Shown in pieces: positions 3,071 through 30,860 of a stretch of 48,364 bases of DNA (its first letter is position 1; each line of letters begins with the position of its first letter). A program made the translations under genes and the position numbers. This DNA comes from Pseudomonadota bacterium (lineage in GTDB: Bacteria; Myxococcota_A; UBA796; GCA-2862545), in the NCBI GenBank assembly GCA_005797785.1, contig SYKL01000097.1, positions 1-48,364 of the forward strand. The letters are read 5' to 3'. Below the pieces are notes generated by a model. That model had not been told where the DNA came from, searched no databases, and saw only the letters and a list, made by a program, of their open reading frames with translations.

Positions 3071-3104
3071 GGGTGTGTGGGGCACCCTCCGGATGTCACA
3101 CCCC
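3071..3104 (+). promoter_or_regulatory. island motif copy A: TGTCACACCCC (3094-3104) within the inverted repeat GGGTGTG-N19-CACACCC
   Basis: Lies in the 81-nt gap between the 1662-3053 and 3135-3782 CDSs. GGGTGTG (3071-3077) is the exact complement of CACACCC (3097-3103). The motif starts 41 nt upstream of ATG 3135. Confidence 0.45.
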
Positions 3105-3134
3105 CTTCTGCATGCTGGGGTGGTAGGAGGCGGC

Positions 3135-3782
3135 ATGGGCCAGGAGAAGGAAACCTCGGGCGGTGCAGTAGGATGCTTGATCGTGCTGGTGCTGACGATG
3201 TGCCTTTTGGCGCCGTTGCTGGTGTTGTGCATCGTCGTGGTTTGGCTGGTCGCGGAGTCGTCCGTCCCCGATGTTCGCCTGTGCAGCCGATTGAGTTCGG
3301 GTGAGTATGTGCGTATTAAGCAGATTTTGGATTATCAACTCAGGCGACGTGGGATCTTTGGACGGGCGGTGGACCTCGAAGAGGTGCGGGAGTTGATCTA
3401 CGAGGAATGCGCCACCGAGGGCCTGCGCGAGGCGTTTGAGGGCCCCGCCCAACGGCAGCTGGCCTGGCAATCCGCGTACCGGTGGTTGTGGGGCAGCCGG
3501 GTTGCGGTGGGGACGTGCGTGTTGTTGGGTATTCTCGCAGTTTATTGGGTGAACGAGATCTATCCGTCGATTGCGGAAGTGTATTCGGGACAGGATGCGA
3601 GTACCTGGGTGATAACCCTGGCGGTCTCGGGTCTGTTGTGCTGGTTCGTTGGGTTGATCGGGTGGTTCGTGGGGGCTTTGGTGTATGTTGCCCTGGGCCT
3701 TCGGCAGGGAGTGCCGTTGGAACGGTGGGAGTTGTTGGTGCAGGCGGTGGAGGAGTTTGAGGGGTTGAACACGAAGGTATGA
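3135..3782 (+). CDS. integral membrane protein, about 4 TM helices, unknown function
   Basis: ATG 3135 has AGGAGG at 3125-3130. Hydrophobic segments: CLIVLVLTMCLLAPLLVLCIVVVWLV, VAVGTCVLLGILAVYWV, WVITLAVSGLLCWFVGLIGWFVGALVYVAL. The longer ORF from 3075 would read through the motif. Confidence 0.6.
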   Translation: MGQEKETSGGAVGCLIVLVLTMCLLAPLLVLCIVVVWLVAESSVPDVRLCSRLSSGEYVRIKQILDYQLRRRGIFGRAVDLEEVRELIYEECATEGLREAFEGPAQRQLAWQSAYRWLWGSRVAVGTCVLLGILAVYWVNEIYPSIAEVYSGQDASTWVITLAVSGLLCWFVGLIGWFVGALVYVALGLRQGVPLERWELLVQAVEEFEGLNTKV

Positions 3783-3867
3783 ACATTGCAGGCTTACGGA
3801 GGGCCCATTGGTCTGACACCCCCCTTGCGAAATGAATGGGACACATCCGTTACAATCGAGGAACGCC

Positions 3868-4026
3868 ATGACCCTAAGCGCTTTGCTGCCTCACGTAGCC
3901 GACCCCGATGGAAAAAGGCTCGCCTTTCTGGGCCTGGCCCATGCGATGTCTAAGGCGCGGCAGCCCTGGAGTTTTGGCGTTCCGCAGTACGGGGACCCAA
4001 GCGTTGGCTCCGTCGGTTGTGCATGA
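3868..4026 (+). CDS. small hypothetical protein (52 aa), or the N-terminal part of a frameshifted gene
   Basis: ATG 3868 has GAGGA at 3858-3862. The translation MTLSALLPHVADPDGKRLAFLGLAHAMSK looks protein-like. The stop TGA (4024-4026) overlaps the GTG 4019 start of the next ORF. Confidence 0.35.
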   Translation: MTLSALLPHVADPDGKRLAFLGLAHAMSKARQPWSFGVPQYGDPSVGSVGCA

Positions 4027-4498: not shown

Positions 4499-4561
4499 GC
4501 GTGCTGTCCGCGAACTCGGGCGAGGTCAGTGCGCCTGATGCGGCGTCTGTTGAGGAGTGCC

Positions 4562-5596
4562 TTAGTAACGTCGATTGGGGCGCCCGGGGCCGCGCTGGAT
4601 GTCCTCGGCTCGGCCTAAGCTGGCCACCAGGTCTTGGTATTCCCTGTGGGTGTAGGCGCGCTTGTCTCGAAGGCTTCGAGCGATCCACTCCAGGAGCGAA
4701 CGAAACTCAGTAGTTCGTTCGTACATGTCGTTGAAATGCTCCCAATCCAGCGTCGGACGTTGACGCCCCGTGGCGATAACGGTTTTCTTTGCTCCCAGTT
4801 TGTCAAGCAACTTGTCGAATTGAGCTTCGGTGAGACCCTGTTCCTCGTCGAACTCCTCTGCGTGAGGCAGGGCGGCGGCGTCGATCCCGTACGCGACGAT
4901 GGTGACGTCATAGGAAGTGCCGAGTCTTCGTAGCTCTTCGACCAAGGTGGAATCATCCACCGATCCGGCGATCGCTAAAACCGAGTGGTGCGCCCATCGC
5001 GAGTTGCTGACGCACTGAAAGAAATGCTCTCTAAAATTGTTGAATGTGATTGCCACTTTGAGCTCGACACTCGTCAACCGGAAGGGCTGCTCTCCCAAGC
5101 TTCGCCTGACCTCCAAGAGATTGCTATCGAGGAAATAGAGTCCATCGTCGTCCACTTTCCCTACGTCCCACTCGACAAAGACGACATCGGGGAACTTCCA
5201 TTTGTTGACCCCCAGCTGATCGCGCCCTGCCCGGGTGTGATCAATGCGCATCGGGAGTTGGTTGTCCTTGAGCGCTTGTCGCATGTAGAAAGCGCGGAAC
5301 TTTTCTTCAGACTGGGAGCCGATGCCTTTGGGCGCGGAGGACGGGACGCCCTCTGGGATCGGCTCGGGCTCAGGTGCGACCCGGAGGTAGTATCCGTGAC
5401 GGCCGACGGCCTTTGCAATCACGGAGGAACTGTCGGCTGCCATCAGCGAGAAGTGCTGTTGAATACTGGAGTCGGCGTAATCGCTGCCGAGTTGTGGGCG
5501 CACGATCGCGAGGAGTTTGGTGCCGTTGATGGCTTTGCTTGGGTCCGTGGGGAGGACCTGCGGGAGCAAGTGTTTGAGGTGTTCGCGGAGGTTCAT
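4562..5596 (-). CDS. winged-helix (HARE-HTH-like) N-terminal domain + PD-(D/E)xK nuclease-like domain; third gene of the helicase operon
   Basis: ATG 5596-5594 overlaps the upstream stop (ATGA). The N-terminus LREHLKHLL...INGTKLLAIV...GRHGYYLRV is wHTH-like. Candidate catalytic residues are FPD137VVFVEWD and SVE178LK180, followed by FFQCVSNS. Confidence 0.6.
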   Translation of the reverse strand: MNLREHLKHLLPQVLPTDPSKAINGTKLLAIVRPQLGSDYADSSIQQHFSLMAADSSSVIAKAVGRHGYYLRVAPEPEPIPEGVPSSAPKGIGSQSEEKFRAFYMRQALKDNQLPMRIDHTRAGRDQLGVNKWKFPDVVFVEWDVGKVDDDGLYFLDSNLLEVRRSLGEQPFRLTSVELKVAITFNNFREHFFQCVSNSRWAHHSVLAIAGSVDDSTLVEELRRLGTSYDVTIVAYGIDAAALPHAEEFDEEQGLTEAQFDKLLDKLGAKKTVIATGRQRPTLDWEHFNDMYERTTEFRSLLEWIARSLRDKRAYTHREYQDLVASLGRAEDIQRGPGRPNRRY

Positions 5597-8500
5597 CGAC
5601 GCACCAGCCGCAGAGTGATGTGTTCTTCCTCGGTTACGAAGCTCCAATCCATCCACGTGGTGCCATGTGTTCGCCGTACGCCTTGAAGACCGTGGTCGAA
5701 CAATAGGTGCATGCTCGCGTACGTCCCGCCTGTCGCGAATGTGATGTCAAGCCGCCTAGCGTGTGGGAGTTGAGCCCACTTCCCATTCTGCTTTTTCGAC
5801 GTGTCAAGCATGGTCATCTTAATGTCCCAACTTGCACCTGCTTGCTGTTTCGTCCAGCTTAGAAGGGCCTCGGCTTCCTTTTTTGAAAGGTCGCTGGGGG
5901 GTGTGCGGTCGTTCAAAAGTTGTTGGGCGTCGGCCTGAGAATAGTGTTCCGCCCGTGGGAGATGACTGTTGATGTCCACGGCTGCTCCTGGCGCGGGACG
6001 GAATTGCTTCAGAACCTCCGCCAGGCGGAGGAATGACACGATGTTCGTAGCAAAAAAACGGTCCCGATAGGACAGACGCGTCACCGTTCCGAGTGCGTGA
6101 AGAGGGCCCAGGTGACGTTCAAGCACTTTGGAGAGCCTGATGTGCTCGGGCGTGGTTTTTCCCTGGGGCACACTGATCCACTTGGTCGTCTCCGTGGGCG
6201 GTGGGGCCCAGACCTCTTGAGCAACTTCTGCCGCTTGGGACCAGGAGTTGTCATAGGCCTCCCACATCAGCTCCGCATTTACTCCATCCGTACGAATGGT
6301 CGAGAAGGCGCCCGAGCGTTGCCATCCTGAGCCAAATGCCGGCTCGGTCCATGGCTGGTTCTCTGTGTTGACTGAACCAAGCGCGGTATAGCCGTCTACG
6401 GCTCGACGCACGACCCCCCATGGGTAGGATGGCAGTTGGCCAATGCGGATCTTCACCCCGTCTCTCGCCAACGTCGCAAGCTTGGACAGGAGAAGGGCTT
6501 CATCGGTGTCGGTATTCGGAAGGCGACCGAGCAGCAACCTACTTTCTCCTCTTTGCAACAATGCTCGAGAGTGCAGGGCTCGGAGTATGCCTTGGGGTTC
6601 GAAGCCATCCTCGGCCACACAACTGCCGAGAAGGACGATGTCTCCCGGGGCGCTCAGCCAGTCCAAGACGATAGGGCGGGGATTCCGAAGTTCCAGTCTG
6701 CCATCATTAAGGATACCCAAATTGGGCGCCCCAGCGATAAACGCATGAAGGTTCTTTTCTCGAAGGTGCTGTAGCAGTGCTTTTGGACGTAGCCGTTGGT
6801 GGATTTGTTGGGTTTCAAATAAGATGAGCGACCCGTGGTTGGGGCTTTGGAGGTATTCGATGGCGCGTTGCAGAAGCGGCCGCCATTCGTTGCGTAGTCC
6901 CAGCAGAACGCCGGAACATGTTCGATCAAGGATGACGCACTCTTTTGTCGTACCGTTTTCCGTATTGAGGGTGGACACCAAGGGTTGCAGGGTGCGGCTA
7001 TCGACTTGGAGGATCTCCGCTGCAGCCTGTTGCAGTACCACAGCAAAGGTGAGGGCCAGATCCTCCGCGGAGTCCGCTGGAAAAGCTGAATCCTGGGTGA
7101 GCGACAAGCGGAATGCGTCGGTGAGTACCGAGGTTCCCAGGGTCATGTGGCGCCAGAAGCGTGCCCCCATTTGGCAAGGGGTGCCTCGGATGAGGTGCCT
7201 ATGGTTCTGGAATGTGGGGGGGACCTCATCGCCCCAGTTTGGTTCGGCGACGGAGAATCCGCACACTTGGCAGATAGCAAAGCCATATCCCGCGCGCTGA
7301 TTCTTATCGACGAGTCCCTCAGATCGGATCAGGAGCGTCGCCTCCTGCGAAACGCCGACCGTCAAGTCGGGTGACACCTCATCCAGGTCGTCGAATGCAG
7401 CGCCGCTAAGCGTCATTCGCGCCGGGGGCATTCGTGCGGCGTCAGCCTTCTCTCGCACCCGCCTTGGGGACTCTCCAGAGACGACTCTGAAGCCCGTGGG
7501 CTGTAGAAAGTGACGAAGTGGCGTTGGTTGATCTGCAAGATCGATTTCGCCGCCATCCCGTTGAAGTTGCTGTGCCGTCGCCCGCGCCCGAACATAGAAT
7601 GCTTGTGCGTTCTCGGCGGGGTGATGGCACACGGAACATTGGTCGCGATCGGCGTCCGAGACGTCAATGTTCCCGCAACGGCGGCAGTGCAGATAGGTCT
7701 TTCGCGTTGCTAAACCGGGGTCGTTGGCCAACCAGTTCCGAATGAGCCCGCCGATGCGGTGGATGCGTTTCTTAGCGACCACCTCGGCGCCCGGGGTGTA
7801 TTCTGACAACGCGGCGTCGAGGGGGCGTTCCATTCGCAGTTCCTCATCGCCGGTGTCGAGTCGAATGATATCTACCGGAAACCCGAATCGCGGAAGGAAT
7901 CCCGTTCGGGCGAGGTATCGGATCAGAGCCTCCCTCATGATCCGATCCTGCTGAAGTTGTAAGGCATTGAGGTACGCTGTCCGTTGCCCCCCTTGGCCAA
8001 GCGCTTGTTCATTCGCGATTTGGCCCGCCAGACAATCCAGGTCGATGCGTGCGGTGTGTACCGATTCCCGAAGGCTGACCGCGGCACCCCGGAGGACGGC
8101 ATCGCCGGGATGGCTTGCAAGGACGGTTCCGTCCACGAGTTTGCGCAGTGCGGCAAGTAGATCAGGGCTCGGTGTGTCGCACCATTTTTCGAACACTTCC
8201 AGAAGAGATTCTCCAGGGTCCACGGGAGCACCCTGCTGAAGCTGCCCGGCCACAACGGGAGTGAGAAGAGAAGTGATGTCACCGAAGGCGTACATCGGGT
8301 TGCCCCTCGGAGCGCGCGTCACCACCTGTTCAAAAAAGCATGAGAGCAGCCATGCATGGACATGGCGACGCACCAACGGGGCCGCGTCGAGTCGCACTTC
8401 CGGCGGACGAATGGGACGTCGCAGAAATGCTCGCAAGTCCGAAAACACACGTTGGTCGTGAGGCTTTGCGGGCGCCAGGGTCAGCACGAGCGATGAGCCA

Positions 8501-11500
8501 TCGGCGCGCCGGCCGGCTCGACCGGCCCGCTGCCAGTAGTTGGAGGGAGCAGGCGGTACATTCGTCATCAGAACGAATGTGAGGCCACCCAAATCGACGC
8601 CCATTTCCATGGTTGTGGAGGAGGATATGAGATTGCGTTTGCCGTTGCGAAAGGCGTTTTCGTCCTGTTCTAAGGCGTCGACATCGATCTGAGCCGTATG
8701 TTCCACGGACCAGAGGCCAAGCGGTTCGTCGTCCGTGACCCGGCGTACGGCATGCCTCTTTCGCCAGTACTCGACCTCGGAGGTGGTGAGCGGCCTCAAC
8801 GGGGATTCATCGGTGAATTCGGTGGGGATGTTGCGCAGAGAGCGGGAGGCCAGGGCCCTGCTATCGGGGGAGATGAACGCCGGTGTTGCTGGCGCGGTAA
8901 ACTGTAGCGCCCAAGGGTACACTTGAATTCCGCCCTGCCCGCCGCGAACGCACTTTCTGTCGGGCAACCCAGGCCCATTTGCAACTTGGAGGAGGGCCCC
9001 CCAAACGGCCCTGAGCAGCGCAATGGCGTCCCCGTCGTGCATGTCTCCGACCCCGATGACCCGGCGTGCGAAGTTGACCACGGGGTTGCGTTCTAGGTTT
9101 GTGGGGACCAATGAGGGTTCTCCCCGCAGTTCGGGAGCGTCGCCTGGAGAGAAAATGAGTCTCTTCCCGTAGTAGTTGTGGCGTAGCAGCCCCTGCAACT
9201 CCTGGGCATTGATGGTTAGGCTTTGAACGGCCCCCTGGCGGCGCGCGTGGTCGAGAGTCGTGGCGAGTAGACAGTGCCATTCATCGCTGCTGAGGATCCC
9301 CTCGTATGCCGGCGGAACCGAAGGTAGGTTGGGGTAGACTACCTGGACAAGGCCCAGCGTTTCAAGCGTGATATTGCTTGGCGAGGGGAGCCGAGCGAAC
9401 TCCCGAAAAACCGAAACCCTGGCCAGTTCGACTCGTGTATTTTCGTCTGGCGCATTCGCAAAATCCGCTCTTTCTCGGAATTTGGGGTGGCTGTACATCT
9501 GCGCGACAAGGTCCTCGCCGCTAATCCCTGGGTTATCACGAATGATCTGCCACAGGAGCTGTCGATTCAGGCCGACGTCGTGGGTGTACTCGACCTCCGC
9601 CGCCAGGGATGCGGTTCCATGTCGGCTGTCCGAGAACGTAAGCACCCGGCGCCCATCTCCTGGCAATGGCTGTTGGGCAGCCGCGGGGTGAGCGCCGAGG
9701 AAGGGGTAGATCGCATCGATGACGGGTCCGACCACCGCATTGGGCCGAATGGTGAGCGGCTTTAGGTCCGCAGACTCCTCGCCGCAGTGCGTACACCGCG
9801 AAATGGAGTTTGGCTTATTTCCTCCACCGACGGGGATGACTTGCACGTGTCGGGCACCCCAACGCTCCGGCAACTGGGCTTGCCATTCCTGCTCAGCATG
9901 AGGCGCGGTGAGGGGGACCCACTTTTGGCGATACCCTGGAGCCTCGGTGTTCCGAAAGAGGGTACTCTCTCCGAACTCGCCGTCTGTCTTGGTCCAGCAA
10001 CGAAGGTATCCTTCGCCGCATTCGGAACAGGTCAATACTTCGAGGAGGTCTTCGTCGTCTTCCGCGGGAAGACGCGAACTGACCCTTCCCCAGGGCCACG
10101 CCTCGGTGCTTTCGCCGTTCGGGCGAGCGTCCACCCACATTCCCGCTGGAGTGCGCAGAATTGCGTGCATTCGCATGGCGAGAAAGGGGTGCTCCGACGC
10201 ATCCATGCGTGCCAAGCTGCAGAGCCGAAGAATCCGATCGGCGCAGATGCGTTCCTCTTCGCCGATTGATTGGGTGCCGAACAGCCATGCTGCAATTTCA
10301 TCCAAGGATTTGAGCCGGCCTTGGCGCTCCTCGTCGAACAACCAGCGGCGGAAATGCACCAATCGAGGGGTCGAACGGACAGCGTGAGCCAGTATCTTGG
10401 CGGGTTGACCTTCACTGGCCAACTGGACGCACTGTTCTGGCGAGAGGAGGCCGCACGCCTGGAGGATCGTCCGGAGTTCATCCGCCATCGGAGGGTCGAC
10501 CACCAAGCCTTGAGGCTCGCCGTCCGGCCCGAGATCCAGCGTTCGCAACGCTGCCGGAATCTCAAAGGCGGTGGGGTCCAGTGGGGGATTCGTTGCAGGG
10601 AGGGGCAGTTCGGGCAGGTAGGGCGTGCCGACGATCGCCGTGACCTGGTCGTCCGACTTGGCGAACATCGATCTGGCAAGCGTCTTTAGAGCGGGTCCAT
10701 TTTCGGCGCCTAAGGTAGCGGACGTCGCAAACCCTTGAACTCTTGACAGCGAAGTCTTGAAACGATCGGCGGTCCGGCGCAACAACATGTGAATTTCCGC
10801 TGCCTGAGAGCCCGCATACACATGCGCTTCGTCCAGGACCATCACCTTGAGGCGTGGAGTGTTTTTAAAGAAGAGATACTCGTCATTGAAAATGGTCCGA
10901 TCGATCGGACGGATCAGCATGTACTCCAACATGGAGAAGTTGGTGATCAGAATGTGCGGCGGTCCATTGGGGCGCCCCGCATCTTGACTGAGGCCACGCA
11001 GTGTCACTCGATCGATGATTTGGCTAGGTTCAGGCTGCCGGCCTTGTGCAATCAATGCACTTCTTGCGGCGGTGTAGTTTTCTTTTAATCGGCCGGTGTA
11101 GTAGGCGAAAGTGAGCCGCTGTTGCCCGCGGAGCAAACGAATGACGCGATCGACCTGGTTGTTTACCAGGGCGTTCAGGGGGTAGATGATGATGGCGCGG
11201 ATGCCAGGTTCGGCCAAATTGTCCAGACCGTTTTCTTCGTCCCAGAACAACCGGTCCAGAAGCGGAATGAGAAATGCCTCTGTTTTCCCAGAGCCGGTGC
11301 CGGCGGACAGGATCACGGTATTTCCAGTGGCAGCAGCGCTGACGGCGGCCACCTGGTGTTCGTACAGAGCGCGAGTGAACCCCGCTGCTTGCATCAGTGC
11401 CACCGTTTTGGGGTGCAACGGCCTGCTCTCGGACGAACGTAGTGGCTCTCCCACTGCCTCCAGGTTGGCCGCATCGCGAGCGGGTTTGTAGGGCCAAGCG

Positions 11501-16019: not shown

Positions 16020-16063
16020 GGCACCCCCTGCTTCCCTTGTGAGACGCGCGCTTCTCAGCCCGC

Positions 16064-16099
16064 CGGACAGTCGGTGTTCATTTCCGGAAGGACTGTCCG
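16064..16099. promoter_or_regulatory. 9-bp inverted repeat CGGACAGTC-N18-GACTGTCCG in the divergent intergenic region
   Basis: Lies between the pseudokinase start (16019, minus) and the start of the secreted protein (16152, plus). The inner part contains the palindrome TTCCGGAA (16082-16089). Confidence 0.3.
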
Positions 16100-16151
16100 C
16101 CCGCAGCCCCTGCTGGCGTCTCCTTACGGTACCCTCGATCTGGGAGTGATC

Positions 16152-16871: not shown

Positions 16872-16903
16872 GGGATCGATACCTTGTTCGTAGGGAAGCG
16901 TCG

Positions 16904-17770: not shown

Positions 17771-17772
17771 GG

Positions 17773-22004: not shown

Positions 22005-22009
22005 ACACC
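21981..22009. promoter_or_regulatory. inverted repeat GTGTGA-N13-TCACAC containing a degenerate island motif (ATGTCACACG on the minus strand)
   Basis: Sits at the extreme 5' end of the nuclease-helicase ORF, and resembles copy A in architecture (GTGTG...GATGTCACAC). Confidence 0.3.
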
Positions 22010-22058
22010 TCGACGCGTGAACAGGGGACGTGCGGACAGTGCGGGTGCAGAGGATGCG

Positions 22059-22964
22059 TCAGGTGACCAGCGCGTCCCAGAAGTCCACCTCGTGCACGAT
22101 GAGCAGCTTGGAGCCGTCGTGTCGCCGCAGGTGCATCGCTTTTTCGATCTTGCGTCCGTAGCAGGCGAAGGCCCAGCAGGCGTTGCCCTCCGCCCCCAGC
22201 ACAAGGTATCCGAGGTCCCGTGTGATCCGGTTCACCGGAAGACCGCCATGTTCCGCGACGATTTGGGAAAGCTCCCCGCGTCCAGACTTCTCGGAACGCC
22301 CCGTGAAGCACACTTTCTTGCCCTTTAGGTTGATCACCGGATCGACCGCGCAGATTCCCCTCACGGTGAGGAGCGAAAGATCAATGGACTCTATCGAGAG
22401 AACTCGGTGCTCATCCGTGGGTACCAAATCGGCCAGGAAGATCTTGACCAGCTCGCGGGCATCATCGGTGATCGCGCGATCCTTGCGAACGTGCGTGAGG
22501 ACCGCGCTGATTTCATCGTAAGGCCAGGTGGTCCGCAAATGATCGCGCTCGTCGAGCCAGTCCGCGAGTGCGGCCAGTTCGTCGTCATTGACGTGGCCGT
22601 CGGCGAGAATCCCGGCGACCATACCGTGTAGGCGCTGAATGTCGGCGGTGATGGCATCGAAGAAGACGTTTGGGGTCGTCCATTTTTCCAGCGCCCAGAG
22701 GAGGTCTGCGAGCTCCTCGGCGTCAACCGCGCCATCGGCGATCACGCGCTCCACTTGATCGGCGATGTCGACAAACGGGGCTCGGTTTCGCAGATTTCCG
22801 AGGGCCTCAACCCATACGCCGAGCGACCGAACCTCGCCCGGGGACACCCTGCCATCGGCGGCTATGCCGCGAAGGACGCCTTCGAGCTCGTGGACACTCC
22901 TGTCCATTTGCTGCTTTCGGGTGTACCGGAGGTAGTGTTCCTCGGGTCTTGGTTCAGCGTTCAT
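22059..22964 (-). CDS. TerB-like repeat protein with C-terminal BRCT domain
   Basis: Three ADG-x-V/I...E...L modules (IAADGRVSPGEVRSL, IADGAVDAEELADLL, LADGHVNDDELAALADWL) resemble TerB-type helical repeats. The C-terminal KKVCFTGRSEKSGRGELSQIVAEHGGLPVNRITRDLGYLVLG is BRCT-like. ATG 22964 has GGAG upstream. Confidence 0.7.
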   Translation of the reverse strand: MNAEPRPEEHYLRYTRKQQMDRSVHELEGVLRGIAADGRVSPGEVRSLGVWVEALGNLRNRAPFVDIADQVERVIADGAVDAEELADLLWALEKWTTPNVFFDAITADIQRLHGMVAGILADGHVNDDELAALADWLDERDHLRTTWPYDEISAVLTHVRKDRAITDDARELVKIFLADLVPTDEHRVLSIESIDLSLLTVRGICAVDPVINLKGKKVCFTGRSEKSGRGELSQIVAEHGGLPVNRITRDLGYLVLGAEGNACWAFACYGRKIEKAMHLRRHDGSKLLIVHEVDFWDALVT

Positions 22965-23042
22965 TGGGGCTCCGCAGAGGAAAATTTACTTTGATGGAGC
23001 ATAAGCTCATGAGGATTTTGGCGCATGATTCAACATGTTCGA

Positions 23043-23053
23043 GGGGTGTGACA
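23043..23053 (-). promoter_or_regulatory. island motif copy D (TGTCACACCCC on the minus strand) within AGGGG-N9-CCCCT symmetry
   Basis: Plus strand reads aGGGGTGTGACAttcccct (23042-23060). Lies 89 nt upstream of ATG 22964 in an intergenic region. Confidence 0.45.
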
Positions 23054-23126
23054 TTCCCCTTCAGGGCGACCTTTCCGGTCATTCCGCGCCCGACGTTGCG
23101 GTCGTTACGTCGAATTTCGGATCGAG

Positions 23127-23486
23127 CTAGCGCTCGATCAAGTCAATCAGCGCCGCAACATCCGTCACGTAGCCGGCCAACTCCGCCTCAGACGGTGCAA
23201 ACTCCAAACCGCGATGATGAATGGCTCGGCTCAGGGCGGACCAGATCCAGCCGATTCGGGTTGCCAACGGCGGGTCGGAAAGGAAATAGGGGAGACATAT
23301 CAACTGCGAACGCCAGGAGGAGTTCGCCAGGCCGGTTTGGCCCTTGCGCCGCCAGTAGTTGGTTATGGCGCCTTCCAGCGCCTGTCGGAGCAACAACGTT
23401 GCGGCGCGGGCCCAAGGCAACCCACGGACACCACCGTTTCCGTTGATTAGGCGCTGGGCTTGCTCCAGCAGCATACGCGGCGTCAC
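23127..23486 (-). CDS. small alpha-helical protein (119 aa), possibly HEPN/DUF4145-like; coupled to the ABC ATPase gene
   Basis: GTG 23486 overlaps the upstream stop (GTGA) and has AAGGAG 8 nt upstream. LLRQALEGAITNYW...LSRAIHHRG...VTDVAALIDLIE parallels the C-terminal domain of the ATPase. Confidence 0.55.
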   Translation of the reverse strand: MTPRMLLEQAQRLINGNGGVRGLPWARAATLLLRQALEGAITNYWRRKGQTGLANSSWRSQLICLPYFLSDPPLATRIGWIWSALSRAIHHRGLEFAPSEAELAGYVTDVAALIDLIER

Positions 23487-25936
23487 GTTCGGAACTCCTT
23501 CCGGAAGAGTATCAGCAGCTTGTGCGTCTGTTCGATCACGTGATGTGGATTGACTTGGATTTCTTCGTGGGATCCGCGGTTGACCAACTTGAAGGTATCG
23601 GCGGCTTCCGATCCCAGTCGCTTGTTCAAGGTGGGGTACACGTCCCCGCCTTTTCGGGCGTCTCCGCTGAACACCAAAGCGGCCAGTTCTACGAGCGACT
23701 TTGCACCGCGGAGTGCCTCCTCCACGTCTTCGTGCCTGCTCCCTTCGCTTAGACGACTTGAGCGATACGCCATCGTCAATTGGGCCTCCAGGGCGGAACG
23801 ACAGAGCCCAGGTACCACACGCGAGACGACAGGTTTGCCTACCTCTTCGCTTGCATTGGCCAGCGCACGGGCGTCCTCAATGTAGCCGGTGACCGGCTCA
23901 AATTGCGGCCGAACGTCTACCAGCGATTTTCCTTTGCGATTGGCTTCTAAGATGGTGGCGGGGATTTTTAGGCCACGAACCGCCTCGATCAACCGGGTGT
24001 CGTGGGTGAACACGATCACTTGGTGCGTTTTTGCGGTGGCCTGTAGAACTTGAGCCAGGCCGTCGACTTTGTAGGGATCCATGGCCTGCACAGGGTCGTC
24101 GATCACCATAAATCGGAAGGGGCTATCGGTGTGCGTCATCCGAGGAATAAAGAGACTTAACGCCAATGCGTTGATTTCTCCCTGGCTCATCACCGCCAAC
24201 GCTCCGCCGCCTTCTGTGCCGTCGACGTTCACCGCTAAATCCACCCTGCGACGGTTGCCGGAGCCTTCCAGGGTCACGCTTGCCAGGTTGACATTACTTT
24301 CTCGGCGCAGCATCGCCCAGATGGATTGAGACCGTGCGGCGATCGGTTGAAATCGCTCGTGTCGAATGCCCTCCTCGGCCCCCTTCAGCCACGTTTCCGC
24401 TTCCCTAAGTCGTTTCAAACACTCGGAACGTTGGCGAGCTTCCTTCGCTTTTGCACACCACGGGGCCAACAATTCTGCCACTGGGCGCCATCGATTCTCG
24501 CTCTCATCGATCATTCCTTCAAGGTTTGTTTTGAAGGTCGCGAACGCCGCTAGCAGCTCCCCTGACCGCTCAGAATACTGGAGGATGGTTGTGGGTTCTT
24601 TGGCCTCACATCCCGCGGCGAGCTCAGACCAAAGCCGGTGGAGTTCAGCTGCTCCGGGTACCACGGATGTCCGCAGCAGTTCTGAGGGCCGCCCCAGGGT
24701 ATTTCGGACGTCTCGTATCGCAGTTTGAAGAGCCTGCTCTGCCTGCTTTGCGACAGCGGTCGCCGTGTGAAGATCGGCGACCCTTTGTCCAGCGGTGGCG
24801 GCCCAGGCCTGGTCCAACTGGCCGGTCGCACAAACAGGGCAGCTCGAGTCTCCATGTTCTTTGTGCCATCCCAGTGCTTTTTCCAGGAGTTCGGCTGTGG
24901 ATTTCTGGAGCGTTTCTTGCCGACCTACTTGATCGATCGTTGTCTGGAGTGCGGAACGCAGCGCGGCTGTCCGATTTTCGAACTCTTTTTCGGCGGGCAA
25001 TTGGAGTTGTTGTAGGCGTCCGAGGTTGATGTTGTCGTTGTTTCGAATGTCGCCGTGGAGGACCGTGAGCACCTCGTCGAGATCCCACTTTTTTTGAAGT
25101 GCCGCGAAACACCGAACGGCTCGGGGATCTTCCATGGGCGCCAATTTGGCGAGGATGGGCTCGAGGGATGTCTTTGCGTCCTTGAGTAGCTTTTCGCGTG
25201 ACAAACGCGCCTTAGCCAAGGCATCCAACGCTCCTGACACCTCCTCCAAGCCGAGGACCGACCGTAGGGAGTCGTAGAATTTTGTTGGTCCTCCCAGTAT
25301 AAGTTGTCCGAGATCGGAGTATGCTAACATCGGTCGGTACGCGGCCAGGGCGTCCTTCCAGCCGAGCTGCTCGAGTCCGCCCAGGCTTCGCCCGCCACGG
25401 GACACCTGCGTTGTACCTCCGGCGACGTCCACATCGCCGGTTGGCCACTTACGGACGATTTGGACGGTATCGCTTCCCTCCACGGCAAATGCAGCCTTGA
25501 TCACACAGGAGCTCGAATCATGGATGTTGCGCCAACTCTGCCGCCAATCGACCGTGCGCCCGCTCAAACGACCTGCGTCGCCTGTCAGAACCACTTCCAG
25601 GGCGTCCGCCAAACTTGATTTTCCCGACCCATTGCGACCCGTAATGATGGTTAGTCCCGGTCCAGGGGGCAGGCTGATGGATACTTCCTTTCCGATGCCC
25701 CGAAACCCAGAAACAGAGAGTCCTGTGAGCCAAGTTCGAACGGGATGTGGCCGTTGCTGTGCGGGGGTCGTTGTTGGGCTGTGACCCGATGACGTGCTGT
25801 CCAGCGTGAGAGCGAGCTGGTTTTCTCCCTCAAACGCCGCTTCGACAAGCTCTGCTACGGGGCCGTCGACGCTTTGTGAGACCATCAATTCATAGATCGC
25901 CCAGAATAAGGCGGATTTTTCGGTATCGGTGGTCAT
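23483..25936 (-). CDS. Rad50/SMC-like ABC ATPase with coiled-coil insert, CxxC zinc-hook-like motif and an extra C-terminal helical domain
   Basis: Walker A GRNGSGKSS. Coiled-coil region with CPVC (24830-24841). Signature-like MSQGE. Walker B/D-loop FMVIDDPVQAMD. FTHD His-switch. GGGAG lies 5 nt upstream of ATG 25936. Confidence 0.85.
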   Translation of the reverse strand: MTTDTEKSALFWAIYELMVSQSVDGPVAELVEAAFEGENQLALTLDSTSSGHSPTTTPAQQRPHPVRTWLTGLSVSGFRGIGKEVSISLPPGPGLTIITGRNGSGKSSLADALEVVLTGDAGRLSGRTVDWRQSWRNIHDSSSCVIKAAFAVEGSDTVQIVRKWPTGDVDVAGGTTQVSRGGRSLGGLEQLGWKDALAAYRPMLAYSDLGQLILGGPTKFYDSLRSVLGLEEVSGALDALAKARLSREKLLKDAKTSLEPILAKLAPMEDPRAVRCFAALQKKWDLDEVLTVLHGDIRNNDNINLGRLQQLQLPAEKEFENRTAALRSALQTTIDQVGRQETLQKSTAELLEKALGWHKEHGDSSCPVCATGQLDQAWAATAGQRVADLHTATAVAKQAEQALQTAIRDVRNTLGRPSELLRTSVVPGAAELHRLWSELAAGCEAKEPTTILQYSERSGELLAAFATFKTNLEGMIDESENRWRPVAELLAPWCAKAKEARQRSECLKRLREAETWLKGAEEGIRHERFQPIAARSQSIWAMLRRESNVNLASVTLEGSGNRRRVDLAVNVDGTEGGGALAVMSQGEINALALSLFIPRMTHTDSPFRFMVIDDPVQAMDPYKVDGLAQVLQATAKTHQVIVFTHDTRLIEAVRGLKIPATILEANRKGKSLVDVRPQFEPVTGYIEDARALANASEEVGKPVVSRVVPGLCRSALEAQLTMAYRSSRLSEGSRHEDVEEALRGAKSLVELAALVFSGDARKGGDVYPTLNKRLGSEAADTFKLVNRGSHEEIQVNPHHVIEQTHKLLILFRKEFRT

Positions 25937-25973
25937 GGGGGCTCCCAGGGCCTTGGCGAGTGCCGTCGGTGAT

Positions 25974-28337
25974 TTAGTTGGGGGAGAGCGAGGTTTCCAA
26001 TCGCTCGACGGGACCTTTCAGCGCATCGTGCAACCGCAAGATCGCGTCCACCGTTGGAGGGATCGCTTTCGACCAAGTGCCCCGGTCGCTCCAACCGCCA
26101 TACTCGAAGGAAACGGCAATTCGGGCGGTGTTTTTCTCGTTGAGGCGATGCCACTCCATAGGGCCGCCAAATACCGCTTCGATCGCAAGCCGTTCATGAA
26201 AAAGCTGGTCGAAAAAGGACTTGTTTCGGTCGCGGCTTCCGGTATTGATGTACAGTTCTGCGCGCGTCGAGTCCTGCAGCACGACGAGGTTGAAGGAGAC
26301 GCCGGTTCGACCGCCGCCAAACCCGATCCAGGTGTCCTTGCCTGGGCTCACTCGGGCGAGGAGCGAGGTGCGTGTTGCCGCATGCGTCAGCAGGTCCGTC
26401 CAAAAGGCGAAACACTCGACGTGTCGTGGGCCGTCGGGTTCGCGATCCGCGTCATCGTCGAGATCGGGTGCTGCGAAATTCAGCGGTTCGTGTTCCGGCG
26501 GTGCCATTTCGCCGAGCGAGAGGCGAGCGGGGTTCCACACCCATTCGGCCAGGCGAACGTACAAAACCTGCCGTTCCCGTTGCTCTTCTGTGCCGAAGTG
26601 CGCGTAGGGTTTGAACGACAGACCGCTGCGTTCGCGGAGGCGTGCAAACGACGGGTCGTTTACATAGGCAATCGGGTGCAAGCTTCTGGCGAGAAGGTTC
26701 TCGCCTTTTGCTAAGTAAGCCGGCAGTTTTTCTTCGTAGGGGGCGTCTCCCAGACTCTGATTGACCCCGCGCTGGAGGAGCAGCAAGCCACCGATTCGAT
26801 TCCGTTCTTCATCGAACTCGGAAGGATGGTGAAATAGGTTTGCATATCTGTCGTAGTGATTGGGCCAGATGTGCTCGATCTCAAACGGCCTTGATTGCCC
26901 CTCGCTCACCAAATCCTCAAAATGAGAGGGGATGCCGCATTCCGTGTCGACCCAATGGGTGAGGCGCGCGAGAATGTGGCGAACTTGTCGGTAGTTCTGG
27001 TTGTGCAACCGAAGGAGGGGACTCCGTGCAAAACGTTCCGGCTGGGCGTCGAGTTGTGAACGAAGGAAGCTGGAAAGGTCCTCGACGGACTTCCCTCGAA
27101 GGTCGCGGGCAAGGTTGAACAGCGTGTAGCGAATGGAGGAGTATGCAATCGTTCGGAAAGTCCACACACGGCGGGCGATCCAGATGTCGATAAAATCAGC
27201 AACTAATTTGATTTTACGGCGTATCGTCTCGGGTTTGTCGCTCGTGGCCAAAGGTGCGAGCAGTAGCTGGGTTTGTAGCGTAAAACCTCGCTCTTCGTTG
27301 TAGCGAATCGATTCCAGACCCGGGGTGAGGGTCGTGGCTGCCCGTCGAATCAATAGGGTCTGGCGGACAAAGAAGTCGAGGTCACGTGTGACGAATCGTA
27401 CGTAGTCGTCGGAAGTATTGAGCGAGAGGCGTTCCTTCTGGTCGCGAACCCAGCGGTGGAACTCGGTGCCGATTCGCTCATAGTCCTTATTTTCGGCGCC
27501 TTTTTTGCCTGGTCGGATCGACTCTGCGTACTGACCACGGAACCAATTCTTGAAGAAGTCGACGTCTTCCTCGACGCCCAGGGCCTTTAGGTCCTGGATG
27601 TGTTGCTTCCAGATGTCATTTACCCGACGCTGATCGTCTTCGTGCCGGATGTTGGCGAGAATGTAGCCTTTCAGCATCTCGGGCAAAGAGAGCGACAATC
27701 CGCGGTCGTTCATGGTTTCGAAGATCGTGTAGGCGTCCTCGTCGCTGTATGCCTCGATTTCGACAAAATGGACATTTTCGAGGAGCCAATCTACAAAATA
27801 CGGGAGCGCCCGGGTGTGGAGGTCTTCGGGAAAGTGATCCGCGATATTGTCGTATCGGAGCGTGATGTTCTGAACGGAGGAGGGGTGCCCCTCGGTGTCG
27901 AACCGCTCGCCCAGGAACAGTGCATCCATGACCGGAGTGCGCTCTGGAACGTCCAAATTGAAACTGCGGCGGCCGAATTTCTCGCTGAAAATGAGGTTCT
28001 TTACGGGAACATGATCGCTACGTTCGTTTTGGAGATGGTGAAGGTAGATCAGGAGGAGCGTCAGCGTGGTTAGGCGCTGTTGGCCGTCGACGACGAATCG
28101 TTGGCTTCGTTTGTGGCTCACCACCACGGAACCCAGAAAGTAGTGACCGTAGTTTTCGACGTCGGGGCGAGAGTGCCCTTCGTCGTAGAAGTCGAGAAAC
28201 TTGCCGGTGAGGTCGTCGATCAATTCGCGCACTTGCCGTTCCTGCCAGGCATATTCGCGTTGATAGAAATCGATGGTGTATTTGGCCCCGTCCAACAGCT
28301 CGCGGACGGTTCGGGCACGACCTTCGATGCTTTTCAT
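25974..28337 (-). CDS. GmrSD-family type IV restriction-like protein (DUF262 ParB-like NTPase + DUF1524 His-Me finger nuclease) with a C-terminal DUF4268-like domain
   Basis: YTIDFYQREYAWQ and VVDGQQRLTTL (DUF262). FEIEHIWPNHY...RIGGLLLLQRGVNQSLG (DUF1524). C-terminal TRAELYINTG...MEWHRLNEKNTARIAV. GGAG lies 6 nt upstream of ATG 28337. Confidence 0.88.
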   Translation of the reverse strand: MKSIEGRARTVRELLDGAKYTIDFYQREYAWQERQVRELIDDLTGKFLDFYDEGHSRPDVENYGHYFLGSVVVSHKRSQRFVVDGQQRLTTLTLLLIYLHHLQNERSDHVPVKNLIFSEKFGRRSFNLDVPERTPVMDALFLGERFDTEGHPSSVQNITLRYDNIADHFPEDLHTRALPYFVDWLLENVHFVEIEAYSDEDAYTIFETMNDRGLSLSLPEMLKGYILANIRHEDDQRRVNDIWKQHIQDLKALGVEEDVDFFKNWFRGQYAESIRPGKKGAENKDYERIGTEFHRWVRDQKERLSLNTSDDYVRFVTRDLDFFVRQTLLIRRAATTLTPGLESIRYNEERGFTLQTQLLLAPLATSDKPETIRRKIKLVADFIDIWIARRVWTFRTIAYSSIRYTLFNLARDLRGKSVEDLSSFLRSQLDAQPERFARSPLLRLHNQNYRQVRHILARLTHWVDTECGIPSHFEDLVSEGQSRPFEIEHIWPNHYDRYANLFHHPSEFDEERNRIGGLLLLQRGVNQSLGDAPYEEKLPAYLAKGENLLARSLHPIAYVNDPSFARLRERSGLSFKPYAHFGTEEQRERQVLYVRLAEWVWNPARLSLGEMAPPEHEPLNFAAPDLDDDADREPDGPRHVECFAFWTDLLTHAATRTSLLARVSPGKDTWIGFGGGRTGVSFNLVVLQDSTRAELYINTGSRDRNKSFFDQLFHERLAIEAVFGGPMEWHRLNEKNTARIAVSFEYGGWSDRGTWSKAIPPTVDAILRLHDALKGPVERLETSLSPN

Positions 28338-28366
28338 AGAATTCTCCGACAGAACGATGGCACCAT
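28334..28366 (-). other. candidate 10-codon upstream ORF (MVPSFCRRIL) whose stop overlaps the GmrSD start (ATGA)
   Basis: ATG 28366 is preceded by AAGGAGG, but with only a 2-nt spacer. It is in frame with GTG 28393 inside the motif, which would give a 19-aa version. Confidence 0.2.
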
Positions 28367-28381
28367 TTCCTCCTTACATGC

Positions 28382-28392
28382 GGGGTGTGACA
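28382..28392 (-). promoter_or_regulatory. island motif copy B (TGTCACACCCC on the minus strand)
   Basis: Lies 55 nt upstream of the GmrSD ATG. It sits between a TTGCCA hexamer and the AAGGAGG element, an operator-like position. Confidence 0.45.
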
Positions 28393-28506
28393 CTATGGCA
28401 AGGCGGCACGGCGGGGGGCTGAGTTTCGAGGTTGGGAGGAGGTTCCTATCGACGATGACATGAAGCAGCGTGGTGCATCGAGCGGCCGCGTGCTTGACCC
28501 TCGCGG

Positions 28507-29412
28507 CTACTTCAACATCCTGCTGCACCACTCCGCCACCATCGCCCGAAAGTCCGCAGGCCCGCGTACCTCCCAATCCCCCTCCAACGCCATCAACCGC
28601 CGCAACAGCACCGGCCAAGTCACCTCCCGCAGCCGGTATTCTTTTGGGTGCTCAGTGGGCTCGGACCAAATCGGCGTTGGAAGCGGTCCGTCGACCCACA
28701 CAACGGCTTCGACCAACTGCATCGGCGCGTCAAACAGCACGTCCCTCCGGTATCCTTGGCTGGCAGCCGGCTCGAACGTCTGATCAGTCACCGTGGCGCT
28801 GGCGATCCGGTCGACCCGGAAATGACGGTGTTCGCCGTTGGGAAGAAACGCCCCCAGGTACCAACGGCCTTGATGCGAAACCACGGCGTTGGGATGGACT
28901 TCTCGCTTGGAGCGCTTGTCTTGGCTGGCGCTGTAATAGTCAAGTAACGTTACTTTACAATCCTGAACGGCCAAGGTGATCGCATCGAGGATTTCGGCGT
29001 TCACCGGGCGATCGTGTGCCCAAGCCAGGGTGCCTGTTCGTGCAGGGAGATCCGGCGACTGGCCTTGAAGAATGCACTTTTCGGCCGTATCGCATGCATC
29101 GGCCAAAGCTCCCTTCGATCCTTGGCGCAACGAGCGGAGGGCGCCGATGGCGACGGCGGCTTCTGTTGGCGAGAATGCCGTACGATCGGGAATGGCAGGA
29201 TGTACATCAAAAATGAGCCAGTCGCCGTCGAGGTCGACCTCCAACAGGTCTTCGGGCAGGAACGGCGGCGCGCCGGATACTACGAGTTCGGCGACCAAAG
29301 CGCCCAATTGGTCCTTGGGGATCCCCAAGATGTCGACGGCCTCATCCACCTTAAGTTCGCCCTGGTTTTTACGGGCCTGTGCCAACAATGCGAGCGTTCG
29401 ACCGAGGTTCAC
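28507..29412 (-). CDS. PafC-like WYL-domain transcriptional regulator
   Basis: GTG 29412 overlaps the upstream stop (GTGA), with GGAG 7 nt upstream. LVAELVVSGAPPFLPEDLLEVDLDGD is typical of the PafC N-terminal region. WYL core is HQGRWYLGAF. Confidence 0.75.
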   Translation of the reverse strand: MNLGRTLALLAQARKNQGELKVDEAVDILGIPKDQLGALVAELVVSGAPPFLPEDLLEVDLDGDWLIFDVHPAIPDRTAFSPTEAAVAIGALRSLRQGSKGALADACDTAEKCILQGQSPDLPARTGTLAWAHDRPVNAEILDAITLAVQDCKVTLLDYYSASQDKRSKREVHPNAVVSHQGRWYLGAFLPNGEHRHFRVDRIASATVTDQTFEPAASQGYRRDVLFDAPMQLVEAVVWVDGPLPTPIWSEPTEHPKEYRLREVTWPVLLRRLMALEGDWEVRGPADFRAMVAEWCSRMLK

Positions 29413-30374
29413 GTTCCCACTCCATGGCGGGCGGCGATCCGTTCGAACTTGCCCTTCCAAACGTTCGCCAAGGATTCCGGCCCGACGACCCGAACGCGCG
29501 GCATCCATTCGAGAATCAGCTGATCCACGCCGTGGGCGTGGGTTACCATCCTTCGGACGCGCGTTCCCTCGATGGTGGTGGCTCCACCGAGGTGTCGGGC
29601 CACCAATTCGACCCATTCGGGTTCACATTCGAGAATCAACTCTTCGGGAGGATGAAGCTTCCAATCCCACGGAAGGACAAAGCCAGAATGTCGGATATCG
29701 AAGCCTTCTGGGCGCTCAAAGTGGTTCATCCCGTCCGGCAGGCCGATAACTTTGAGCCCGTGGATCAGACCGATTTTGAAGGTGCGACGTTCGTTCTTTT
29801 CGTTGCATCGGCCGACGACGTACCAATGACCGCGGCGGGAAAACAAACCCCAGGGTTCTAGCGTGCGAGAACGCGCATCTCCGCCTTTGACCGGCCGATA
29901 CGAGAACGACACCCGCAACCTGCGCCAGATCGCCAAGGTCAGCTTTTCGACCAGTTCGACGACGGTTGGCGGATCACGCGTGATGTGATGAGTGACGATC
30001 GGACTCCGCTCTGAGCGGAGATCCATGAGAATTCGCTTGGCTTCCGGCGCCAACGCAAACCGGTCATCAACCGAGGCCAAACCGAGGGCTTCGCGGAGTA
30101 CGATCGCTGAAGCGGTATCGAGTTGGAGCGGCCGTGCACGGAGCGCCGACGCGTCCAAAGAGTAACCTTTCCCATCGTAATGGAGGATGACGCCGGCTTC
30201 GCGGAGGATCCGTTTGTCGCGTTCGAACGTGCGCCGCGCGGACTCTTCTGCGCCTAAGTAGGCCTCGATGGGGGCGAGTTCTGTGCGAATCGCGGAGAAT
30301 GGCACCGGTGCTCGGCGGGAGCGGAGCAGGGCGAGGAGCGCGATGTGGCGTTGGAGCGGGTACGACTTGGCCAT
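29409..30374 (-). CDS. PafB-like HTH + WYL-domain transcriptional regulator
   Basis: N-terminal wHTH LQRHIALLALLRSRRAPVPFSAIRTEL...FERDKRILREAGV. WYL core is RRGHWYVVGR. Start is ATG 30374 (no SD, possibly leaderless) or GTG 30410. Confidence 0.75.
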   Translation of the reverse strand: MAKSYPLQRHIALLALLRSRRAPVPFSAIRTELAPIEAYLGAEESARRTFERDKRILREAGVILHYDGKGYSLDASALRARPLQLDTASAIVLREALGLASVDDRFALAPEAKRILMDLRSERSPIVTHHITRDPPTVVELVEKLTLAIWRRLRVSFSYRPVKGGDARSRTLEPWGLFSRRGHWYVVGRCNEKNERRTFKIGLIHGLKVIGLPDGMNHFERPEGFDIRHSGFVLPWDWKLHPPEELILECEPEWVELVARHLGGATTIEGTRVRRMVTHAHGVDQLILEWMPRVRVVGPESLANVWKGKFERIAARHGVGT

Positions 30375-30822
30375 GAGGGCCGATGGTAGCAGAGGTTGGG
30401 GTAATGTCACACCCCTTGGTTGAACAAGCGAACTTCGCGCTCAGTCTTACCGATTCCAGAGGTTCATCATCTCCAATCCGCGTCGTAGGTCCGCCAACGC
30501 CTCGCAATTGCTCGGCGAGGAGGAGTCGAGCCCGAAGTTGGTCGGGAGTCAGCACTGCGTAGGAGGCCTCGACACCGGACATTCGTTGGGAGAACTCCTC
30601 CCTTACGGCACGAGCCCAGTCGAGCTCAAAGGCCGCGATGGCGGATTCGGTCACGCGCAGGGCAAGTTCCTGTTCATCGAACTCCTCAGGAGTTACCTTC
30701 AGACGCGGGGGATCGGACTGCCACAGGTGTATGAACGCTTCGAGTTCGGTGACGTGCCCGCGTCCCTTAAACCACGTCCAAAGCGTATTCCAAGATTCCG
30801 TCGGGGTAGGTTCGGTCGCCAT
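30067..30822 (-). CDS. hypothetical protein; only about the first 110-130 aa look genuine, and the rest overlaps the WYL gene out of frame
   Basis: ATG 30822 has GGAGG 6 nt upstream. EEFDEQELALRVTESAIAAFELDWARAVREEF is helical and protein-like. After about aa 125 the sequence becomes Pro/Arg-rich while overlapping 29409-30374. Confidence 0.35.
   Translation of the reverse strand: MATEPTPTESWNTLWTWFKGRGHVTELEAFIHLWQSDPPRLKVTPEEFDEQELALRVTESAIAAFELDWARAVREEFSQRMSGVEASYAVLTPDQLRARLLLAEQLRGVGGPTTRIGDDEPLESVRLSAKFACSTKGCDITPTSATIGPHGQVVPAPTPHRAPRPAPLPPSTGAILRDSHRTRPHRGLLRRRRVRAAHVRTRQTDPPRSRRHPPLRWERLLFGRVGAPCTAAPTRYRFSDRTPRSPRFGLG
30372..30415 (-). promoter_or_regulatory. candidate sigma70-type promoter of the WYL operon; its -35 is formed by the inverted island motif copy E (plus-strand TGTCACACCCC 30405-30415)
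   Basis: The minus strand reads GTGACA (30410-30405), a 16-nt spacer, then TACCAT (30388-30383), with 8 nt to ATG 30374. This is compatible with a leaderless transcript. GGGG...CCCC symmetry surrounds the motif. Confidence 0.35.
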
Positions 30823-30849
30823 CGGATGCCTCCGCAGCTTCGTTACCCG

Positions 30850-30860
30850 GGGGTGTGACA
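30850..30860 (-). promoter_or_regulatory. island motif copy C (TGTCACACCCC on the minus strand)
   Basis: Lies 38 nt upstream of ATG 30822. The preceding A makes ATG-TCA-CAC-CCC, which is the ORF-track start at 30861. Confidence 0.45.

Follow-up and report, generated by a model that had tools for sequence, protein, structure and literature searches.

An 11-bp candidate promoter element accompanies a PafB/PafC-like pair of WYL regulators in an anti-phage defence island

Introduction

The promoters governed by mycobacterial PafBC have the in vivo consensus tGTCgg(N10)tA(N3)T, in which the 5' part, the '-26 element' at -23 to -28, substitutes for a -35 hexamer (PMC8635444). Arginines R46 and R50 of PafB read two G-C pairs of the GTC triplet, and the helix-turn-helix (HTH) of PafC touches region 4 of the sigma factor (PMC8635444). 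Here we describe a 48,364-bp stretch of bacterial DNA (positions 1-48,364 of contig SYKL01000097.1; hereafter the window) that carries an anti-phage defence island. Within the island are five exact copies of an 11-bp word, TGTCACACCCC, together with two overlapping genes for WYL-domain regulators, WYL1 and WYL2. We argue that TGTCACACCCC is probably the activator-binding -26 element of a sigma-adaptation promoter served by this PafBC-like pair, and we are highly confident that the word is a functional cis-element tied to the pair.

BrxR and CapW, the WYL factors of bacteriophage exclusion (BREX) and cyclic-oligonucleotide-based anti-phage signaling (CBASS) loci, are single-gene homodimers and repressors that act on inverted repeats. 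The WYL regulators described from defence islands to date, BrxR and CapW, fall into a clade of their own among such factors (PMC12392091). Other WYL proteins, DdaA of Moraxellaceae and DriD of Caulobacter, are activators; DriD is activated by single-stranded DNA (ssDNA) and DdaA is substituted at one ssDNA-contacting arginine (PMC12392091). DdaA controls restriction-modification and CRISPR-Cas promoters, thereby tying damage sensing to defence, and its palindromic site lies at about -50, an arrangement explicitly contrasted with that of PafBC (PMC12392091). Unlike the pair described here, DdaA and DriD are homodimers that act on palindromes (CGWCA-N5-TGWCG; CGAC-N7-GTCG). SiwR of M. smegmatis resembles the present system in being a WYL activator that depends on the -26 region and controls adjacent genes (PMC10693628), but it is an actinobacterial homodimer that uses a 19-bp imperfect palindrome and targets DinB-like genes.

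The locus shares with the mycobacterial PafBC system (the RecA-NDp/PafBC motif, tGTCgg-N10-tAnnnT) the adjacent genes for PafB-like and PafC-like winged-HTH WYL proteins, the GTC-reading arginines, and a GTC hexamer that is followed after exactly 10 nt by a -10 hexamer, lacks a -35 and is predicted to lie at -28 to -23. It differs in several respects. The element is an almost invariant 11-mer instead of the looser tGTCgg, the hosts lie outside the Actinobacteria (homologues bear names that point to Myxococcota/'Deltaproteobacteria' and Gemmatimonadota), and neither pafA nor a Pup-proteasome setting accompanies the pair. The setting is a tRNA-integrated island with anti-phage targets beside the regulator, in contrast to a dispersed DNA-repair regulon, and the element also occurs beside the genes of the regulator itself, whereas DNA damage reportedly does not induce mycobacterial pafBC (PMC7617703). 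As in BREX and CBASS loci, a WYL factor is encoded beside defence genes and has a (here predicted) control site in 5' regions, but in the present case the factor is a PafB/PafC-type pair and the site is asymmetric, at a fixed spacing from a -10 and without a -35. To our knowledge, PafBC-type sigma adaptation has been demonstrated in mycobacteria only, and there is no earlier description of either the TGTCACACCCC element or a defence island governed by a PafBC-type pair.

Results

Copies of the 11-mer in the window

The five exact copies of TGTCACACCCC are found where an original prediction, made from the DNA letters alone, had placed them. The chance expectation is 0.01 and none of 100 dinucleotide-preserving shuffles attained five. 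Copies with one mismatch are absent from the window, and those with two mismatches occur there at chance level (11 found, 15 expected). The shorter word TGTCACAC yields a sixth exact site, in the 127-bp gap between a gene for a 301-amino-acid (301-aa) protein and the start of a helicase gene. This site, too, is intergenic, because the helicase gene begins at 21932 in the public gene calls of the contig. The copies and the hexamers that follow them are given below; SD denotes a Shine-Dalgarno sequence and ORF an open reading frame.

3094-3104, forward strand: motif copy 1 (TGTCACACCCC), 41 nt 5' of the ATG at 3135 of the gene for a 215-aa membrane-like protein (3135-3782)
3111-3116, forward strand: CATGCT, candidate -10 of copy 1, at a spacing of N11, not N10
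21982-21989, reverse strand: sixth copy, 8-mer only (TGTCACACGGA), 57 nt 5' of the called GTG at 21932 of the gene for an RNase-H-like plus SF1 helicase (18522-21932)
21968-21973, reverse strand: TACGGC, hexamer at N10 of the sixth copy, a poor -10
23043-23053, reverse strand: motif copy 2, 89 nt 5' of the ATG at 22964 of the 301-aa gene (22059-22964)
23032-23037, reverse strand: CATGTT, -10 of copy 2 at exactly N10, the best -10 of the window
28382-28392, reverse strand: motif copy 3, 115 nt 3' of the WYL2 stop codon and 55 nt 5' of the GmrSD ATG (28337)
28371-28376, reverse strand: TAAGGA, hexamer at N10 of copy 3
30405-30415, forward strand: motif copy 4, inverted relative to WYL1; the hexamer in its own direction, TGAACA, is unusable as a -10
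30850-30860, reverse strand: motif copy 5, 38 nt 5' of the SD-supported ATG at 30822 of an uncalled ORF that continues towards WYL1
30839-30845, reverse strand: TAACGA (N9) and AACGAA (N10), hexamers of copy 5

According to the public gene calls, none of the six copies falls inside a gene, and five of the six face a downstream gene at motif-to-start-codon distances of 41, 57, 89, 55, and 38 nt. This bears out the original prediction that the copies are intergenic or at the start of an ORF and that four of the five exact ones point to genes 38-89 nt downstream. Its statement that no copy lies to the right of the tRNA gene also holds, and extends over a further 6.4 kb of the same contig. Copy 3 probably drives a candidate operon composed of the genes for GmrSD (25974-28337), an LmuB/SMC-like ATPase (23483-25936), and a 119-aa protein (23127-23486). 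The window falls within ENA contig ERZ27257035:k141_822226, and an identical island is present in several contigs of metagenome-assembled genomes (MAGs); those copies are no independent evidence.

The motif travels with the WYL pair

An exhaustive HMMER search for relatives gave a small subfamily of about 12 representative clusters (E <1e-30, 35-46% identity) that are clearly apart from the actinobacterial PafBs. Counts were made on 16 independent loci encoding relatives of the pair (223 kb; 25-46% identity) from Deltaproteobacteria, Gemmatimonadota, and unclassified metagenome contigs. In these loci TGTCACAC was found 22 times versus 3.9 expected and TGTCACACCCC 16 times versus 0.15 expected, and the copies usually adjoin the WYL pair.

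L005, L007 (a Deltaproteobacteria MAG), L008 (three copies), L009, L046, L049, L082, L083, and L085: exact 8-mer beside the WYL pair
L011, L014, L018, and L041 (Gemmatimonadota): exact 8-mer beside the WYL pair

Control loci, mostly those of actinobacterial PafB proteins (28 loci, 475 kb), gave five 8-mers, none with both the CCC extension and a -10. A scan of metagenome contigs returned only distant relatives (at most 31% identity), and two of those loci have the motif. Every motif-bearing locus encodes a tandem WYL pair, whereas the cargo varies (AAA ATPases, a MoxR-like operon, a KAP NTPase, an Ig-domain protein, and a TY-Chap3 chaperone-like protein), and thus the WYL pair is the sole shared component. 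Moreover, at 25-46% protein identity neutral DNA would be saturated and therefore an exact non-coding 11-mer must be under selection. Since the motif accompanies homologues of the pair across phyla, the earlier view of a cis-regulatory motif of several island units, probably served by the WYL pair, is strongly supported.

Three positions of the motif recur. The first is directly 3' of WYL2 and before the variable cargo (window copy 3, L005, L008, and L085). The second is directly 5' of WYL1 in the forward direction (L082 and the Gemmatimonadota loci L011, L014, and L018), and the third is directly 5' of WYL1 but inverted, towards a divergent MoxR-like operon (L007, L008, and L083/84). That operon consists of a conserved MoxR-like AAA ATPase gene (Pfam AAA_3/bpMoxR) followed by genes for 347-aa and 446-aa proteins, and lies at 8496-9938 in L007, 8331-9848 in L008, and 1563-3005 in L083. 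A Joint Genome Institute (JGI) contig of P0386 likewise has the WYL pair divergent from a MoxR-like operon.

Two further arrangements were seen among the relatives. At 5399-5503, L049 has two divergent copies about 90 bp apart, TGTCACACCCC-N5-GATCTT and TGTCGCACCCC-N5-CACCTT, which suggests a bidirectional regulated promoter region. In L080/L081, a member of 35% identity has TGTCCCTCCCC at 6971-6981, 60 nt 5' of WYL1 and without a -10, in place of the canonical 11-mer; its specificity may have diverged.

A probable bipartite promoter with the PafBC spacing

A first alignment was made of 16 relatives' sites that were chosen by the 8-mer alone, with the first T of the motif as position 0.

Positions 8-10: C in 15/16, 12/16, and 12/16 sites
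Position 17: A in 15/16 sites
Position 21: T in 13/16 sites
Positions -6 to -1: no conservation

The lack of conservation at -6 to -1 indicates that there is no -35. When all 22 of the relatives' sites were taken, the hexamer located exactly N10 after TGTCAC had A at its second position in 21 and T at its sixth in 19. The full NANNNT pattern was present at that exact spacing in 19/22 sites, versus a background of 2.4%. Examples are as follows.

L014: TGTCACACCCC-GGCTC-TAGCTT
L041: TGTCACACCCC-GGAGC-TATCGT
L007: TGTCACACCCC-CGGGG-CATGTT

These sites have the PafBC promoter layout: the spacing is the same and there is no -35. The cis-regulatory reading is thereby sharpened, in that the motif most likely forms the 5' half of a two-part promoter. 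The distance between the motif's first T and the start codon is 28-89 nt. For L014 the GTG at +28 coincides with the predicted transcription start and the WYL mRNA of that locus would be leaderless. The local dyad symmetries that had been pointed out around several window copies are indeed present in the sequence, but the positions upstream of the motif are unconserved in the relatives and the dyads look incidental.

A position weight matrix (PWM) was made from the relatives' sites, scanned over the window, and compared with shuffles. Window sites 2, 3, and 5 exceeded the mean of the shuffle maxima (13.0), and site 2 alone came near the top shuffle score (24.4). Two other candidates were set aside. 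One, at 14980-15001 (TGACACAACCC-N5-TAAGCT), lies on the ATG of a 1109-aa ORF of the Druantia system; its score of 13.5 is within the shuffle range, no start codon follows within 100 codons, and the site is considered unproven. The other, at 3812-3824, was one of two degenerate copies originally proposed. It has no GTC triplet and its PWM score of 7.7 is inside the shuffle range, and hence it is unsupported, whereas the second degenerate copy, at 21981-21990, contains the exact 8-mer of the sixth site. No convincing site was found in the window 5' of the Druantia, kinase or PARG genes. The regulon is therefore a part of the island: several units stand as proposed, but 'island-wide' was too broad.

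WYL1 and WYL2 resemble PafB and PafC

29409-30374, reverse strand: WYL1, PafB-like regulator, 321 aa
28507-29412, reverse strand: WYL2, PafC-like regulator, 301 aa, with the Pfam domains HTH_PafC and WYL

The two genes overlap by 4 nt and are located between the GmrSD and integrase genes. Among all PDB sequences the top match of WYL1 is PafB of M. smegmatis (7p5x_AY, E 1.4e-16). The matches of WYL2 are PafC (7p5x_AX, E 5e-12) and the C-terminal PafC half of the Arthrobacter PafBC fusion (6sj9, E 5e-19). Up to an E value of 0.01 no other WYL regulator appeared among the PDB matches of either protein. Pfam did not detect a WCX domain in WYL1.

In the HMMER alignment with 7p5x_AY the recognition helix segment FSRMFERDK of PafB is paired with ARRTFERDK of WYL1 and both GTC-reading arginines are retained. 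Across a 14-sequence alignment of the subfamily R47 (PafB R46), R52 (PafB R50), and D53 are invariant. The PafB residues that bind ssDNA are R181, Y196, R204, R208, R211, and R214 (PMC11804915). WYL1 retains the equivalents of R181, Y196, and R208 and has K in place of R204 and R211 and L in place of R214, and WYL2 retains the equivalents of PafC R201 and R204. The window has no pafA gene. The genes downstream of the motif are of the defence type, unlike the DNA-repair regulon, which is a feature of context rather than of mechanism.

Proposed mechanism

The enrichment of the motif, its association with the WYL pair in different phyla, the fixed N10 to the -10, the PafB/PafC homology, and the conserved GTC-reading arginines are computed results, whereas binding itself, the direction in which the genes are regulated, the ligand, and the points of transcription initiation are inferred. 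The promoter form would be TGTCACACCCC-N5-(t)ANNNT without a -35, read by a heterodimer-type pair of WYL1 plus WYL2. By analogy with mycobacterial PafBC the PafB-like winged HTH would read the GTC-containing hexamer at about -28 to -23, the partner subunit would bridge to sigma region 4, and the housekeeping holoenzyme would use the -10. The trigger would probably be a single-stranded nucleic acid acting on the WYL domains, such as that arising upon phage attack or DNA damage. The forward copies would activate four or five units: the gene for the membrane protein at 3135, possibly the helicase gene at 21932, the 301-aa gene, the operon of GmrSD, the LmuB-like ATPase, and the 119-aa protein, and the ORF that runs into the regulator genes.

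Several observations weigh against this activator model. Its main internal weakness is that the -10 hexamers of the window are weaker than those of the relatives: all six copies have the upstream hexamer, but NANNNT is present at N10 only at site 2 and at N11 for site 1, and sites 3 and 5 and the copy at 21982 have no T at position 6. The window promoters may have low strength, depend strictly on the activator, or be in partial decay. Compared with the mycobacterial -26 element the 11-mer varies far less, and nothing in the PafBC structure corresponds to its CACCCC part. WYL1 is changed at two of the ssDNA-binding arginines of PafB (R211 to K and R214 to L). Finally, two loci of the subfamily lack an exact copy, L079 (in which only 157 nt upstream of WYL1 are present) and L080.

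A broader proposal is tentative, and we hold it with somewhat less than even confidence. Sigma adaptation would be old and widespread, and the pair described here would belong to a distinct non-actinobacterial PafBC lineage with an almost invariant 11-bp -26 element. Borne by mobile islands, the lineage would act as an autonomous 'sensor plus promoter' cassette, which would induce any defence cargo located behind the motif upon the appearance of phage- or damage-derived ssDNA. The cargo of such a cassette would be GmrSD, the Lamassu-like ATPase, and the helicase in the present island and MoxR-like systems and AAA ATPases elsewhere. The finding of the motif with its pair would extend sigma adaptation to Myxococcota/Deltaproteobacteria-like and Gemmatimonadota lineages, and would give PafBC a new role, the coordinated induction of several unrelated anti-phage systems by one island-encoded sensor. 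The 11-mer plus the -10 rule gives a searchable signature for the regulon of this WYL lineage and for new defence cargo. The long invariant element also predicts protein-DNA contacts beyond the GTC read-out of the PafBC structure.

Alternative explanations

The serious rival, although we consider it unlikely, is that the motif is the operator of a BrxR/CapW-type WYL repressor that blocks otherwise constitutive defence promoters until a signal arrives. The known defence-island regulators BrxR and CapW are repressors, site 4 overlaps a sigma-70-like -35 and thus has repressor-type geometry, and the weak -10 hexamers of the window speak against strong activated promoters. However, the motif is asymmetric with no conserved inverted-repeat partner and with unconserved flanks, and as no -35 is conserved at the forward sites there is no autonomous promoter to repress. 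Moreover, the N10 spacing to the -10 matches that of the activator PafBC, the best PDB matches are PafB and PafC, and a tandem pair rather than a single gene is present in every motif locus.

It is improbable that another factor, for example an alternative sigma or a different island DNA-binding protein, uses the motif as its promoter element and that the WYL pair is only indirectly associated with it. In favour of this, the described mycobacterial PafB-DNA contacts leave the invariant ACACCCC extension unexplained, and binding by the pair is itself a prediction. Against it, no sigma factor or other regulator is common to the loci, only the WYL pair, the 10-nt gap is too short for any -35/-10 pair of the sigma-70 family, and the motif is found in hosts from different phyla.

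We give very little weight to the idea that the copies mark where mobile elements end or recombination takes place (terminal inverted repeats of miniature inverted-repeat transposable elements or insertion sequences, or integrase or cassette sites). Inverted pairs do exist, for example 30405/30860, which flank 456 bp, or 3094/23053. Copies 2 and 4 are identical at 17/18 nt and an integrase gene is nearby. However, the similarity is confined to 11-18 nt without target-site duplications, orientation and distance track gene starts, the relatives retain a -10 at fixed spacing, and many loci have a single copy or direct copies only.

Still less credible is the suggestion, raised with the original prediction, that the copies are leaderless starts (ATG/GTG-TCA-CAC-CCC) encoding a shared M-S-H-P N-terminus. 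A purine does precede every window copy, and for two copies the reading frame agrees with that of the coding sequence that follows (3093 with 3135 and 30861 with 30822), but the others are out of frame or meet stop codons. The preceding base varies among the 22 relatives' sites (A9, T5, G5, and C3), the -10 is downstream rather than upstream of the motif, and SD-supported starts lie 38-89 nt further on. The copies might also belong to a genome-wide dispersed repeat, such as a repetitive extragenic palindromic (REP) element or an uptake sequence; about 21 kb of chromosomal flank contains no copy.

Copy 4 and a candidate promoter of the regulator genes

Copy 4 is the one that does not face a downstream gene. 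Its complement supplies GTGACA (30405-30410) as the -35 of a sigma-70-like promoter, GTGACA-N16-TACCAT, in which the -10 is at 30383-30388 and ends 8 nt ahead of the WYL1 ATG (30374). This agrees with the original assignment of the hexamer to the WYL operon and is the only sigma-70-like promoter match in 21.8-31.5 kb. Copy 4 likely serves as an autoregulatory operator, or else it is what is left of the divergent promoter that relatives have. A role as driver of a divergent gene, as in L007 and L008, was rejected; the window does not contain the MoxR-like operon, and copy 4 has a bad -10. In the most economical reading the WYL pair would be made from an ordinary, nearly leaderless sigma-70-type promoter that is repressed when the pair occupies copy 4.

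The ORF that starts at 30822 (region 30067-30861, reverse strand) is protein-like for about 125 codons, has no family match, and meets no stop codon before running for about 300 nt into WYL1 in another frame. In the public gene calls the 700 bp between a 74-aa gene and WYL1 are wholly uncalled.

The island and its other genes

The motif copies sit in the island to the left of the tRNA-Arg(CCT) and tyrosine integrase genes. Its further features are listed here.

31477-32709, reverse strand: tyrosine integrase, right edge of the island
33232-33304, reverse strand: tRNA-Arg(CCT), right edge of the island
5593-15002, reverse strand: Druantia type III-like pair; a 2130-aa ORF matches DruE (E 1.8e-201)
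15246-17770, opposite strands: Ser/Thr kinase (PD-T4-6-like) and microbial PARG, between the Druantia genes and the helicase, neither with a motif copy 5'
18522-21932, reverse strand: MkoA-like RNase-H/SF1 helicase
23483-25936, reverse strand: LmuB-like (Lamassu-like) SMC ATPase
25974-28337, reverse strand: GmrSD

The 1109-aa ORF that precedes the DruE ORF has no family match and is presumably the DruH-like partner of a Druantia III system. The longest ORFs of the pair share about 300 nt, and so DruE probably starts at a codon further downstream. No att-type direct repeat of the tRNA 3' end of at least 12 nt was found for the left boundary of the island, and a search of sibling contigs for an island-free site showed that all carry the island. 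Homologues of the chromosomal gene to the right of the tRNA carry the names Deltaproteobacteria, Myxococcota, Myxococcales, and Oligoflexia, and hence the host is probably not an actinobacterium.

Just downstream of motif copy 3 is a 10-codon upstream ORF, MVPSFCRRIL (28337-28366, reverse strand), that has AAGGAGG as a strong SD. The ORF ends in a TGA that shares bases with the GmrSD ATG (ATGA), which could provide translational coupling or a leader peptide.

An Rfam search of the window returned only the tRNA and RNase P. The latter is a bacterial class A RNase P RNA at 48118-48364 (reverse strand, 160 bits) that is clipped by the window end. Degenerate direct repeats, with an 18-nt period and related, lie within a coding region at 46867-47102 and 47130-47393, indicating a repetitive acidic or Asp/Thr-rich protein segment.

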